Positions 33,944 through 37,671 of a DNA stretch of 46,554 nt are shown here, piece by piece. The DNA lies in the IMG/VR virus record IMGVR_UViG_3300031707_000031. The stretch is one strand, 5' to 3'. The DNA comes from a virus. The notes below the pieces were generated by a model. The model was not told the DNA's origin. It worked only from the letters and a program-made list of their open reading frames with translations, and ran no database searches. Positions within the stretch are counted from its first letter, which is position 1, and each line of letters starts with the position of its first letter. The position numbers were made by a program, and so were the translations under genes.

Positions 33944-34052
33944 CGACCAGCCAGTATCACCTCAAGCGAGGGATTTACCCTATCGTTAAATTATTAAGAT
34001 TTTTTAAAATTATTTTACCTAATTAGTAATCTTAATTATTTAAAGTTTTGGC

Positions 34053-34079
34053 TAGAGGGGAGAGATTACCTCCCCTCTA
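34053..34079 (-). other. perfect 10-bp hairpin TAGAGGGGAG-7 nt-CTCCCCTCTA downstream of the capsid gene
   Basis: Read directly; 46 nt past the capsid stop. It has no U-tract, so it may be a transcript-stabilising or termination element. Confidence 0.85.
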
Positions 34080-34105
34080 CTTGCGTCTGCCGAACCAAAT
34101 TTATA

Positions 34106-34117
34106 TCTAATATTAGC
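34106..34117. promoter_or_regulatory. operator-like site TCTAATATTAGC (isolated copy outside the control region)
   Basis: TATCTAATATTAGC here is identical to the copy at 44084-44097. Confidence 0.45.
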
Positions 34118-34124
34118 CTAAAAA

Positions 34125-34900
34125 TCAGGCACTTCCGTCACCCTTCGAAAGTTTCAGCCAAACGCCAGATACTGTGCAGATTCCGTAACCACATCTGACC
34201 CCAAATTGCCAATCGTCGGTGCTAAATTCATCTCCGTTATTTCCTTCAGACGGACTTTTCAATCTCGGCTCTTCAGCGACGCCAAGATAAAGAGAAGAAT
34301 TAGCCGAAGACGCTAAACCCCAATAATATCTCTTTGTCGAATCTACCGCTCCTGCCGCAGTTGTGGCGACACGAGGAAGAATGACGTGGCGATATTTGGA
34401 TTTATAAACGTTGACAACATTTGAATTCATACCAGTAAGGTCGGCAGTGGATTGCAGATACTCTTTGGCAGTGTTGACGGTGTTCGGGTCGTCAGTTGTC
34501 CAGAGAATATCGAATTCCATTACCATCTTTTCACCAAATTGGTTCAAAGTCTCTTCAGCAACGAGTCTCTCCATTCCCTCTAACGCACCCTTAGATAACT
34601 TCGGGTTATTAGCAAGAATGTTGCGATAAGTTGCGGTTGTTCCTCTCAAATAGTGACCAGTGGAGGCCAAGCAAAGAGTATCGCCAGTTGCAATATCAAT
34701 TGTGTTGGAATCCATATCGGTATAAGTAGTTGCTGTTGCGAAGGTTAAGCGATGAGACAAATCTAAATCCATTCTGCGTGCAGCTTGAGCGGCATTGCCA
34801 GTCAAGCGAGCAACAACTTCAGGATATTTATTCTGTGTTCTCATTTCATAGGTGATTCCGATGTCCATAGCAACACGTTTTATTGTCATGGTCTTGCTAT
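34125..34900 (-). CDS. major capsid protein, exon 3 (C-terminal 258 codons plus 2 nt)
   Basis: The frame stays open upstream of M34889 (..SKTMTIKRVAMDIGITYEM...). Position after scaffold and decoration genes. It possibly resembles the Mu gpT head-subunit family, from memory and unverified. Confidence 0.7.
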
Positions 34901-34927
34901 CAAATTTGTTACTATTTCTTACTGAAT

Positions 34928-34956
34928 TTGACTATTTTATGTCATAGTGTTAGAAT
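34928..34956 (+). promoter_or_regulatory. early-type promoter TTGACT-17 nt-TAGAAT driving the antisense HNH gene
   Basis: TTGACT at 34928-34933 and TAGAAT at 34951-34956. The ATG at 34964 lies 8 nt after the -10, so the mRNA is leaderless or nearly so. Confidence 0.55.
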
Positions 34957-34963
34957 TAACACT

Positions 34964-35425
34964 ATGAAATTATATAAAAATCGTGATTGGCTCTATACGA
35001 TGTATGTTGATAAAGATTTAAGTCAGCGAGAAATTGCTAAATTATGTGACATAAATCAATCAATAATACATCGTGCTTTGGTTAGGTTCAGCATCCCAAG
35101 AAGGAAGTTCTGCGGTCGTTCAGGAATCCATTGTCATCTTTATAAAGGGGGAAAGTCCAGAACTACCCAAGGATATATACACATCCTTTTAAAGGGTCAC
35201 CCTCGGACTAATTGCAAAAACTATGTTCCTGAGCAAGTCCTTGTCGTAGAAAAGCATCTTGGTCGTTATCTTTCTAAAGAAAATGCAATCCACCATATCA
35301 ACGAAATTAAGGACGACAATCGGATAGAAAATCTTTATTTATTTCCGTCCGAGTCAGAACATCAGCGTTATCATCAGAAATTTAGAAAGGGAACGATGCC
35401 GTTAATCACTAAGTCAAATTTGTAA
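34964..35425 (+). CDS. HNH homing endonuclease (HNH_3-like, 153 aa) with an N-terminal HTH
   Basis: AIHHINEIKDDNRIENLYLFPSESEHQRYH is the HNH motif, and LSQREIAKLCDINQSIIHRAL is an HTH. The ORF-track start at 34883 overlaps capsid exon 3 and is rejected. Confidence 0.8.
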   Translation: MKLYKNRDWLYTMYVDKDLSQREIAKLCDINQSIIHRALVRFSIPRRKFCGRSGIHCHLYKGGKSRTTQGYIHILLKGHPRTNCKNYVPEQVLVVEKHLGRYLSKENAIHHINEIKDDNRIENLYLFPSESEHQRYHQKFRKGTMPLITKSNL

Positions 35426-35431
35426 GGAACG

Positions 35432-35453
35432 ATGAGACTACTTCGAGTCTCAT
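35432..35453 (+). terminator. hairpin ATGAGACT-6 nt-AGTCTCAT just after the HNH stop
   Basis: 8-bp perfect stem 7 nt after TAA (35423-35425), followed by tcaccagTTTCTTCTT. It could equally be an intron stem on the minus strand. Confidence 0.4.
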
Positions 35454-35627
35454 TCACCAGTTTCTTCTTGTTATGGCTGGTGTTCAGACTATTACATCCG
35501 CCGACTTTCGGCGGTCTTTTCGGTTAGTCGTTGTTGCTGCACGCTTACGCTGCTTGCAAGGCGTTGTCCACTGCTGGGTTTTCGCCGTAGATTAGAAAAG
35601 ATTTTATAAGGACTATAGCACTTGTCA

Positions 35628-35843
35628 ATCCTTGCTGAACTTTTGCTCTTTCGGCTTGAGAGCCTTCGCCCTTAGCCTTAGCATACTCTTCGGAATCTAT
35701 TTCGCTAAATTCACGAGTGTTGCCGCTGTTTTGAGGTATCGGATATTCCTTTACCAAGCCAGAACCACGCATAACCTGTGCGACACTGGCATAAGCTTTT
35801 AGCCAAATGACGGACGCAAGTTTTACGAAGTCATTCAGACTAA
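35628..35843 (-). CDS. major capsid protein, exon 2
   Basis: Encodes (F)SLNDFVKLASVIWLKAYASVAQVMRGSGLVKEYPIPQNSGNTREFSEIDSEEYAKAKGEGSQAERAKVQQG. The 3' end is well supported, but the 5' end depends on the intron-1 model. Confidence 0.55.
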
Positions 35844-36539
35844 CTGTATTAAGTTCGATATAATTAGTAATTACTTAATAATACTAATGGTATGTTAACT
35901 GGTATGATTTTACTATGCTTTTTCAGATTACATCGCAGACATAATGGTTGAATGTTCCCGATATTATTGTCCCCACCTTTACTCAGAGGAATAATATGGT
36001 CTTCGGTTAGATAAGGAGTTCTTTGTCCAATAAATGGTTCGGACTTCCCACACATCAAACATCGATAATTATTAATGCGTTTCAATTCGTTCCACTGCGT
36101 GACGGTATGAGAACTTGTCAATGATACTGCCCTAAGCCGATGATTACGCTGCTTCTTCTGCCAAGAAATATATCCGTTCTCTAAACATCGGCCATCTTTA
36201 AAGAAATGACTCTTTTCTCCAGTATGTGCATCAATAATTGATTGGCGATGTTCTTTGGAAAGAGTATGCCCAAGAGCAAGAGAGTTGCCAGTCATCAATA
36301 TTTTTAGTTCCCTCTTTCGTTCTTCTGTGTGTATTGGTACACCGATTTTTTTTGCTCTTATCTTGTTTACGGTTGCTGCCGAATATCTTCTACAAGCCCC
36401 AGAACAAAAAGTCCTTCCATTACGTATTTCGTACGCCCACGCAACGAATTCTTTTCCACATGTTCTACATTTCAAAGTACTCTTCCCCGTTCCTCTTTTT
36501 GCATAAATCATAACTATTAATATACCATTAGTTATTATT
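35844..36539 (-). mobile_element. candidate group I intron or HEG insertion (696 nt) at the extreme 5' end of the capsid gene
   Basis: UAUGU (36544-36540) pairs with GUAUA (36525-36521), and ACUAA (36532-36528) pairs with UUAGU (35843-35839); G at 35844. This is the same 14-nt-loop architecture as the other intron, but P1 is weak and the ORF fills about 93% of the insert. Confidence 0.35.
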
Positions 36540-36568
36540 ACATAATTGTAAATTATGTTTACTGCCAT
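35864..36568 (-). CDS. HNH homing endonuclease with zinc-ribbon and NUMOD3-like motifs (215-234 aa)
   Basis: TEDHIIPLSKGGDNNIGNIQPLCLRCNLKKH is a classic HNH motif. CRTCGKEF...CSGAC and GHTLSKEHRQSIIDAHTG are the other two motifs. An alternative start is ATG 36511. Confidence 0.8.
   Translation of the reverse strand: MAVNIIYNYVIITNGILIVMIYAKRGTGKSTLKCRTCGKEFVAWAYEIRNGRTFCSGACRRYSAATVNKIRAKKIGVPIHTEERKRELKILMTGNSLALGHTLSKEHRQSIIDAHTGEKSHFFKDGRCLENGYISWQKKQRNHRLRAVSLTSSHTVTQWNELKRINNYRCLMCGKSEPFIGQRTPYLTEDHIIPLSKGGDNNIGNIQPLCLRCNLKKHSKIIPVNIPLVLLSNY
36540..36543 (-). CDS. major capsid protein, proposed exon 1 coding part (AUG plus U)
   Basis: Joining 36540 to 35843 gives AUG UUU AGU CUG AAU GAC, i.e. 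MFSLNDF, in frame. The AT-rich context (cataatttacaattATG) resembles other late starts. Confidence 0.3.
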
Positions 36569-36625
36569 GACACTGATTGTTTAGGCCATACGCTGTTCCT
36601 AGTAAACTTAAATTAATTATTATTT

Positions 36626-37072
36626 TTAAGAATTTGCTTTTAATCTGGCATCAGTACCAACGTTCAAGATGAAAAGACCCTTGGTTGTGCTAATAAATTT
36701 AACGCATTGCACAATGTGGTAAGTGGAAGCACTCTGGTCAACGCCAGTACCATCGTCAGCAGTGGTCAAGTTAAAATATAAGCCGACAGAAGTTGTTGCC
36801 AGTGTGCCAACAGCGACTGGGGCTTCCCAAATAACATTCTTTTCCACAGGTACTTCAATCGGAACTAAGCGAGCAACTGCATAATCGGAATCAGCCGTTG
36901 TGATTGCCTTTCTGATTACACCAACCATATCGTAGTTATTGGCAGTATTTGTAGCAGGAATCAAAACTCCGCTAGAATAAGCCATTAATGCACCGTTTGT
37001 TACCGCTCCAGCAGAGGCAGCAACAGGAAGATACATTATTTTTGTCTTTCCTTCTTTGCGAATAAACGCCAT
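36626..37072 (-). CDS. putative head decoration / capsid accessory protein (148 aa)
   Basis: Small beta-rich protein directly upstream of the capsid gene, starting MAFIRKEGK. An alternative start is MYLPVAAS at 37036. The call is positional inference. Confidence 0.35.
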   Translation of the reverse strand: MAFIRKEGKTKIMYLPVAASAGAVTNGALMAYSSGVLIPATNTANNYDMVGVIRKAITTADSDYAVARLVPIEVPVEKNVIWEAPVAVGTLATTSVGLYFNLTTADDGTGVDQSASTYHIVQCVKFISTTKGLFILNVGTDARLKANS

Positions 37073-37111
37073 ATAAGTAAGTTTTAAAACTAATAAATAA
37101 GCCCTATTACA

Positions 37112-37144
37112 CAAAAAAACACGATATTTGTGTAATATTCGTGT
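37112..37144 (-). terminator. rho-independent terminator upstream of the decoration and capsid genes
   Basis: Minus strand: ACACGAATATT-ACACA-AATATCGTGT (10 bp with one bulge) followed by U7. Confidence 0.55.
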
Positions 37145-37287
37145 TGTTAACGCAGTTTCTCTGCGAAGAAAATATGGCTTTTTTTAACGCTGGTATTGCT
37201 CCATCGGATAAGTTGTCGATTCCGACCAACCTGTTGCCAGATTAGCCGAATATTGAAAACCTATGTCTAAAAAAGGCACTATAATCA

Positions 37288-37671
37288 TTATACCACCTTA
37301 TCTTCAATTGGGGAAGATGATGTTTTGATTTTTGTCAAGAGTCTAAGGTTAATGTCATCCCCGCCAGAGCAGTTAAATGTGCTTCTTAATAACTCTTCCC
37401 GCAAATTATGAGCTAAGACCTCTATCGAATTGGCAATGTTACGACAAAAATAGAAACCCAGGTCATAATAAGCCAACTCTGCCAAGAATTTACGAGCGAA
37501 CAGGTCGTTGATATTGTCGGTAACATTACCAGTACCCTTTGTTTCCGACTTGATTAAGTCAAACAACTCTTTATTAATTACAACTGAATTATTGTCATCG
37601 ACGAACTCGACAGAAAGATTTTTTTCATCCTTGTCAAGCGTAATCTTAATCTCTTTTGTTCCGATAAACAT
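37288..37671 (-). CDS. hypothetical head-module protein (127 aa)
   Basis: Co-oriented ORF between the scaffold region and the capsid region. Confidence 0.5.
   Translation of the reverse strand: MFIGTKEIKITLDKDEKNLSVEFVDDNNSVVINKELFDLIKSETKGTGNVTDNINDLFARKFLAELAYYDLGFYFCRNIANSIEVLAHNLREELLRSTFNCSGGDDINLRLLTKIKTSSSPIEDKVV

Follow-up and report, generated by a model that had tools for sequence, protein, structure and literature searches.

A predicted mobile group I intron with an antisense homing endonuclease gene in a phage major capsid gene

In the IMG/VR virus record IMGVR_UViG_3300031707_000031 (46,554 nucleotides (nt), the whole stretch being called the window here), the major capsid gene, which belongs to the PF25209 type (Phage_capsid_4), is interrupted on the minus strand by an insertion of 727 nt at positions 34901–35627. 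We read this insertion as a mobile group I intron that is predicted to be spliced and put the probability of this reading at roughly 0.88. An initial annotation made from the sequence alone had already proposed a group I intron at this position, and the interpretation is now supported by a junction that is collinear with uninterrupted homologues, by the Pfam match of the joined protein, by a core that is recognized by a covariance model of its relatives (R1), by covariation within this core and by a link to the capsid intron of LittleE. Group I introns in capsid genes are already known from the Lactococcus phage Tuc2009 and the mycobacteriophage LittleE; what is new here is an intron lineage that had previously not been catalogued. 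If spliced as predicted, the window provides one more well-supported example of RNA splicing being required for the protein that phages produce in the largest amounts.

The split capsid gene and its junction

The capsid gene and the ends of the intron comprise the following features.

35628–35859, minus strand: upstream capsid coding segment, from codon 1 (ATC) to the first base of Tyr78, ending in ...CAGCAAGGAU; placed by translation and by alignment with homologues of 335 amino acids (aa)
34901–35627, minus strand: predicted group I intron, 727 nt, beginning with UGACAAG and ending in ...AGUAACAAAUUUG (terminal G)
35608–35619, minus strand: internal guide sequence, made up of the P10 strand GCUAU and the P1 strand GUCCUU
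34901–34917, minus strand: 3' tail of the intron, 17 nt, AAAUAGUAACAAAUUUG, with the terminal G as its last base; fits the 3' end of the family, ..AGUAACA(A/G)A..UG
34125–34900, minus strand: downstream capsid exon, from the AU of Tyr78 through SKTMTIKR... to the stop codon

When the sequence was re-checked on the minus strand, the two capsid pieces were indeed found 727 nt apart and the 5' exon ended in ...GUUCAGCAAGGAU at 35628, both as initially annotated. The capsid frame runs as ...FSEIDSEEYAKAKGEGSQAERAKVQQG up to 35628 and continues as (Y)SKTMTIKRVAMDIG... from 34900, and the predicted spliced junction 35628|34900 joins ...GTTCAGCAAGGAT to ATAGCAAGACCATG. Ligation to GGA-UAU-AGC, which had been proposed before, is in frame and is the sole join that restores the conserved QQG-Y-SKT. 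The conceptually joined protein retrieved 1758 homologues when used as query. Almost all of the best 120 of these are 334–337 aa long, and they match with full coverage and 65–83% identity. In 16 aligned sequences, drawn from the about 120 listed matches of about 335 aa, the homologues are continuous over ...RA.VQQG|YSKTM..KRVA.DIG, with no gap and no extra residue at the join. Since uninterrupted homologues are collinear across ...VQQG|YSKTM..., the junction is fixed at 35628|34900, and the collinearity on which the initial annotation depended is borne out by the alignment.

The joined protein also matches PF25209 above the Pfam threshold, with 28.4 bits (gathering cut-off 27) in a single stretch of residues 35–318 that spans the junction, compared with 22.2 bits for the 254-aa 3' fragment alone. 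Gene callers annotate only this 254-aa fragment, starting from an internal ATG, and no other capsid gene was found in the window. Two details of the initial annotation had to be revised: homology indicates a protein of 335 aa instead of 331 aa, and neither the start region nor the homologue alignment provided evidence for the separate first exon that had been proposed.

The guide sequence agrees with what had been described. GUCCUU at 35613–35608 pairs with AAGGAU of the 5' exon and places the U35628.G35613 wobble at the junction (P1), while GCUAU at 35619–35615, directly 5' of the P1 strand, is complementary over 5 base pairs (bp) to AUAGC (34900–34896) of the 3' exon (P10). The terminal omega-G at 34901 closes the insert. 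In 2,000,000 shuffles of the first 40 intron bases, a 6-bp P1 with terminal U.G occurred in 0.6%, and P1 together with an adjacent 5-bp P10 in a fraction of 1.7e-5. P1 is retained with changed bases in the related introns L066 (CAAGGGU/GCUCUUG) and L068 (AAGGCU/GGUCUU), and other members of the family have a P1 of their own with the U.G pair (L047, CAGUCU/GGACUG; L037, GAUCGGU/GCCGAUC).

The ribozyme core and its relation to known introns

The canonical helix order P1, P3–P9, P9.1, P9.2 can be read by hand from the RNA, with the elements downstream of P1 located as follows.

35450–35607, minus strand: ribozyme core P3 to P9, delimited by the match of model R1 and by covariation
35601–35595 and 35521–35515, minus strand: P3, UCUUUUC/GAAAAGA
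35586–35583 and 35563–35560, minus strand: P4, GGCG/CGCC
within 35578–35568, minus strand: P5
35559–35556 and 35537–35534, minus strand: P6, with an extension capped by a GUAA loop
35529–35525 and 35491–35487, minus strand: P7, GACUA/UAGUC; the region 35487–35529 encloses P3', P8 and J8/7 and forms a pseudoknot with P3
35521–35515 (P3'), 35514–35498 (P8) and J8/7 (AUGUAA), minus strand: elements inside P7
35482–35477 and 35460–35455, minus strand: P9
35432–35453, minus strand: P9.1 hairpin, AUGAGACU-CGAAGU-AGUCUCAU
35412–35426, minus strand: 5' arm of P9.2, CUUAC-A-AAUUUGACU, overlapping the 3' end (final codons and stop) of the antisense endonuclease gene
34918–34933, minus strand: 3' arm of P9.2, AGUCAAAUU-CA-GUAAG, closing a 478-nt loop with the antisense endonuclease gene

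All stems listed in the initial annotation (GACUA/UAGUC, CCGCCGA-AAG-UCGGCGG, CACCAG/CUGGUG and the 10-bp hairpin at 34943–34966) were found, and so were the 265 nt of the insert outside the endonuclease open reading frame (ORF), which divide into 202 and 63 nt. The features of a guanosine-binding P7 are present at the sequence level, namely A-C(bulge)-GACUA / UAGUC-U together with J8/7 AUGUAA, from which guanosine binding is predicted. The core is compact and has no P2, P5abc or P7.1/P7.2.

A pattern derived from the two P7 strands retrieved 55 viral contigs, about 25 of which contain the entire core. Model R1 was built from 10 other relatives among these viral contigs, excluding the window itself and copies nearly identical to it. 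It matches 35450–35607 of the minus strand end to end with 137.2 bits (E=3e-24) and flags no non-canonical pair; this is the sole strong match in the window, the next one being noise. A complete group I core from P3 to P9, including P7, is thus detectable both by manual folding and by a covariance model. In an alignment of 19 members, 93.6% of the cells form standard pairs, compared with 37–43% when the partners are slid by 1–3 columns. Compensatory changes on both sides occur in 32 of the 38 pairs, and none of 500 shuffles reached the observed covariation. Double compensatory changes affect all pairs of P3, P4, P6/P6a and P8, three of four in P5 and five of six in P9, whereas P7 is invariant bar one compensatory change from A-U to G-C. 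The minimum-energy fold of a construct without the ORF contains P1, P3–P6, P8, P9, P9.1 and P9.2, that is all helices except the pseudoknotted P7.

The covariation extends to an intron at the very same site. In L066/L067 (IMGVR_UViG_2626541819_000003, locus 1445–2610), a 65%-identical capsid gene is split at the same codon, QQG|YSK, by an intron of 1.17 kb. Compared with the window, its P1, P7 (GACUG/CAGUC), P8, P9 and P9.2 (CCUUGACAAUAG/CUAUUGUCAAAG) carry compensatory changes, and it ends in GGUAACAGAUUG|AUAGC. L068 likewise has a P9.2-equivalent stem of different sequence.

On this architecture, splicing of the late transcript would proceed as in other group I introns. The guide would pair with the last six exon bases (P1, with U.G at 35628) and the first five of the next exon (P10), and the compact core would fold through P3–P8 with the P3/P7 pseudoknot, followed by P9, P9.1 and P9.2. 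A guanosine bound in P7 would attack the 5' splice site, the terminal G at 34901 would dock, and the exons would be ligated at 35628|34900 to yield an mRNA that encodes a continuous capsid protein of 335 aa.

BLAST searches against GenBank phages gave no match for the 3.3-kb region, the capsid fragment (tblastn), the intron core or the core of a relative. Among known systems, the intron in the window is closest to the capsid intron of LittleE (gp13, with the HNH gene gp14 inside; JF937101). Both are group I-type introns in a major capsid gene, with the core on the 5' side, an HNH gene of opposite orientation behind it, a 5' exon ending in U and an intron ending in G. Splicing of the LittleE intron has been shown by N-terminal sequencing of the protein and by RT-PCR, and transcription of the HNH gene inside it runs the opposite way (PMC3706429). 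Model R1 aligns the LittleE core end to end with 32.3 bits (E=1.7e-4), which is weak compared with the 137 bits of the window but connects the family of the window to a spliced group I intron of the same layout. The two differ in several respects: LittleE has a 478-aa HK97-like capsid protein with a delta domain and a different insertion site, its HNH protein has no detectable similarity to that of the window (BLASTP E=2.6), and the Rfam group I model RF00028 gives 30.7 bits there and nothing for the window. In Tuc2009 (AF109874), the gene for the major head protein mp4 is likewise annotated as split, with orf37 and orf39 joined after excision of a group I intron. However, its intron ORF orf38 is in sense orientation, R1 does not match, and RF00028 scores 43.2 bits.

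In the T4 td intron, both strands of P7 and the bases next to them have the same sequence as in the window (AACGACUA ... AUAGUCUG). The td intron also resides in a protein-coding phage gene, carries its endonuclease gene in a peripheral loop and is missed by Rfam. On the other hand, it belongs to group IA2, has P7.1/P7.2 between P3' and P8, encodes the GIY-YIG endonuclease I-TevI in sense orientation in P6 and is not matched by R1, whereas the intron in the window is devoid of P2 and P7.1/7.2 and has its HNH gene in antisense orientation in P9.2. Endonucleases of the I-HmuI type, from the DNA polymerase introns of the Bacillus phages SPO1 and SP82, are HNH family members of phage group I introns with a nicking mechanism that serves as the model for the endonuclease in the window, and the ORFs of these introns lie on the sense strand, unlike the antisense ORF in the window. 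The endonuclease in the window resembles them by family description and has an HNH_3 domain together with an N-terminal helix-turn-helix-like region.

Weighing alternative readings

Several observations speak against a spliced group I intron or weaken its support. Rfam reported no group I match in the whole window at the gathering threshold, nor in 34000–37400 and 35400–35650 at E≤10, where no family of any kind scored, and none in 18 related loci at the gathering threshold. The search with RF00028 that the initial annotation had suggested was therefore negative at the gathering score and at E≤10. The same search, however, also fails to report the T4 td intron (L058) even at E≤10, and the scores of LittleE (L091) and Tuc2009 (L092) stay below the gathering cut-off of 50. 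Since the td control was missed too, the negative Rfam result is uninformative and does not refute the intron; routine Rfam scans under-call phage group I introns. A scan of metagenome contigs for the spliced junction found no transcript and one uninterrupted DNA allele only. In L066, whose intron occupies the same site, P10 has just 3 bp. Neither P2 nor the P7.1/P7.2 of T4 td (IA2) is present in the family, so no subgroup is given. The 19-member alignment was fitted to the model and leans towards the structure, although RNAalifold on a plain MAFFT alignment recovers P3, P5, P6 and P8 with compensatory changes independently of the model and thus provides partial support. In addition, base pairing between the intron RNA and a transcript of the antisense endonuclease gene could conceivably disturb the folding of the intron.

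The insertion might be a splicing-dead remnant or an endonuclease cassette, with the capsid made as two polypeptides (residues 1–77 plus a tail, and the MTIKR fragment) or the gene being a pseudogene. The truncated gene call, the negative Rfam searches and the junction scan would fit such a view, but we consider it very improbable. The complete covarying core scores like bona fide members of the family, and the same split is found in the 65%-identical capsid gene of L066 with compensatory changes in the helices. The exons are in frame and under purifying selection, as most of the 22 exon differences to the closely related L001 have third-codon spacing and only two residues are changed in exon 3. 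Without splicing, the capsid frame would meet a stop after 27 unrelated codons of the insert, and the window offers no second capsid gene as a substitute. Other types of intervening elements, which could equally account for the precise restoration of the capsid frame across the insert, have next to no probability. An intein is incompatible with stops in all capsid-strand frames of the insert, whose sole long ORF is on the other strand; for a group II intron, the 727 nt contain neither a 5' GUGYG motif nor a domain V nor an Rfam group II match; and the insert is far too long for known translational bypasses and contains a full group I core.

A genuine group I intron that is not autonomous is unlikely too, yet it deserves more weight than either of these views. 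Splicing would in this case need a protein cofactor from host or phage, or a delay between endonuclease and late transcription. In favour of this view, protein cofactors are required by many group I introns, P2, P5abc and P7.1/P7.2 are all missing from the very compact core, and an mRNA from the other strand would be complementary to the 478-nt loop of P9.2. Still, nothing in the sequence demands a cofactor, and efficient splicing in infected cells has been shown for the LittleE intron, which has the same layout, even if the autonomy of that intron in vitro was not settled by the study (PMC3706429).

The antisense endonuclease gene, mobility and the capsid start

The peripheral loop of P9.2 and the region upstream of the capsid gene contain the following elements.

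34964–35425, plus strand: putative homing endonuclease gene, ATG 34964 to TAA 35425, 153 aa, antisense to the capsid gene and the intron
34928–34956, plus strand: promoter-like site, TTGACT-17 nt (TG)-TAGAAT, 7 nt upstream of the endonuclease ATG, with a predicted function
34943–34966: perfect 10-bp hairpin, whose plus-strand 3' arm contains the endonuclease start codon
35864–36568, minus strand: second HNH gene (PF01844 and NUMOD3), between the upstream gene and the capsid start
36571–36600, minus strand: intergenic hairpin with loop GCCTAAACAATCAGTG, before the capsid gene

The endonuclease ORF is intact and lies on the antisense strand within the 478-nt loop, a plus-strand orientation that the initial annotation did not mention. 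Its product consists of the helix-turn-helix-like region and the HNH_3 domain (Pfam PF13392, E=1e-8, 35 bits, cut-off 24.8; PHROG 7545, E=1e-25). Relatives of the endonuclease are encoded in 24 viral contigs, and the copies in L066 and L068 are 49–58% identical and occupy the same antisense position. In L066/L067, the 58%-identical HNH ORF lies antisense in P9.2, and the intron holds a second endonuclease gene, a sense LAGLIDADG ORF in P6. In L068, the 49%-identical endonuclease is antisense beside a core of the family (96 bits) in a different host gene.

In the introns of the window, L066 and L068 (3/3), the endonuclease ATG is preceded by TTGAC[A/T]-17 nt-TAnnnT, and behind the stop codon the antisense of P8 plus P3' forms a GC hairpin that leads into a T-run. 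The -35 hexamer of the promoter-like site in the window is the antisense of the 3' arm of P9.2. Because the numbers of promoter-like and terminator-like sites in the window alone equal the chance expectation, we infer these expression signals from their conservation; on this basis, the endonuclease gene probably has its own promoter. The antisense position of the gene is conserved in three diverged introns and in LittleE, which raises the question how ribozyme and complementary mRNA avoid interference.

A 10-nt direct repeat (ACAAAUUUGA on the intron strand) is found at 34900–34909 and 35414–35423, 514 nt apart. Its copies, which contain the palindrome CAAAUUUG, sit at the 3' splice site and in the 5' arm of P9.2. 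The repeat may be the scar of an insertion of the endonuclease cassette, or it may provide an alternative pairing that hides the terminal G.

The capsid site is polymorphic for the intron. Uninterrupted capsid alleles occur in L002, L059–L064 and L102, and the intron-less site reads CAGCAAGGCTATTCCAAGACC in L002 and CAACAAGGATATAGCAAAACA in L102. The window and L001, a sister phage that was assembled independently (as was L053), show no difference in the 727 intron positions but 22 differences in 1005 positions of the flanking exons, none of them closer to the splice sites than 106 nt on the upstream and 181 nt on the downstream side. This is the pattern expected from recent homing with co-conversion and suggests that the intron was recently transferred in this way. 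The endonuclease would nick intron-less capsid alleles of co-infecting relatives, and repair would copy the intron along with about 100–180 bp of flanking exon. The six intron-less alleles first compared have GG[C/T] TAT TC[N] at the insertion site, whereas the intron-bearing alleles (window and L066) have GG[A/G] T|AT AGC. An adaptation of the GGA/AGC codons to the intron, which we considered, is weakened by L102: since this allele is uninterrupted and yet carries GGA TAT AGC, the flanking codons are not diagnostic. The L102 allele could reflect a precise loss of the intron.

Beside other members of the family, the exons encode major head proteins (PHROG 267/283, 9953 and 1357) and a portal protein (PHROG 156). 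This bias towards head genes is only suggestive because the sample of the family was chosen by a pattern. It is possible, if tentative, that we are looking at a compact lineage that is invisible to Rfam, with a td-like P7 and without P2 and P7.1/7.2, and that prefers the head genes of phages (a portal gene and major head genes belonging to four or more protein families). One branch of it would use both strands, with a P9.2 arm serving as the -35 element of an antisense promoter, a near-leaderless mRNA and P8 plus P3' as intrinsic terminator; this would interlock ribozyme and endonuclease expression signals physically. Such introns may be common in the head genes of uncultivated phages. As gene callers return a truncated fragment and Rfam returns nothing, metagenomic capsid genes can be mis-annotated as truncated, and model R1 together with the about 25 related loci offers a handle on the lineage.

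Five related loci (L011, L016, L026, L038 and L050) contain 2–4 introns of the family in tandem within a few hundred bases. These tandem introns are located in head or portal genes or beside very large ORFs, and multi-intron genes of this kind resemble Twort orf142.

Codon 1 of the capsid gene in the window is ATC (35859–35857), where homologues start MELN with ATG, and no in-frame ATG, GTG or TTG precedes Met30 (35772). Codon 1 is also ATC in L089 (759–761) and ATA in L090 (about 1560–1562). In both loci it is preceded by ACTAACAATCAT and followed by conserved residues, and neither has a nearby HNH gene. These observations suggest that the major capsid gene uses a non-AUG start codon. The second HNH gene directly upstream was considered as the cause of the ATC codon and dismissed, as ATC and ATA are found in L089 and L090 without that gene. 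No tRNA genes, and hence none able to read AUC as start, were found in the window, and a pattern scan of viral contigs with the motif of the start region gave chance matches only.

The second HNH gene is enclosed by a 52-nt imperfect inverted repeat with arms at 36556–36505 and 35910–35860, and a deletion in L001 and L053 removes about 530 nt of it but spares both arms. A second group I intron around this gene was rejected, since R1 does not match and a core would not fit beside the HNH ORF, which takes up the insertion. The repeat arm does not represent a repeated element either, as it occurs only once in the window. Relatives of this HNH gene were not found in the viral contigs.

The hairpin upstream of the capsid gene is conserved in several, but not all, relatives (L002, L064, L089 and L090). 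It could be a late regulatory element or an element of translation.

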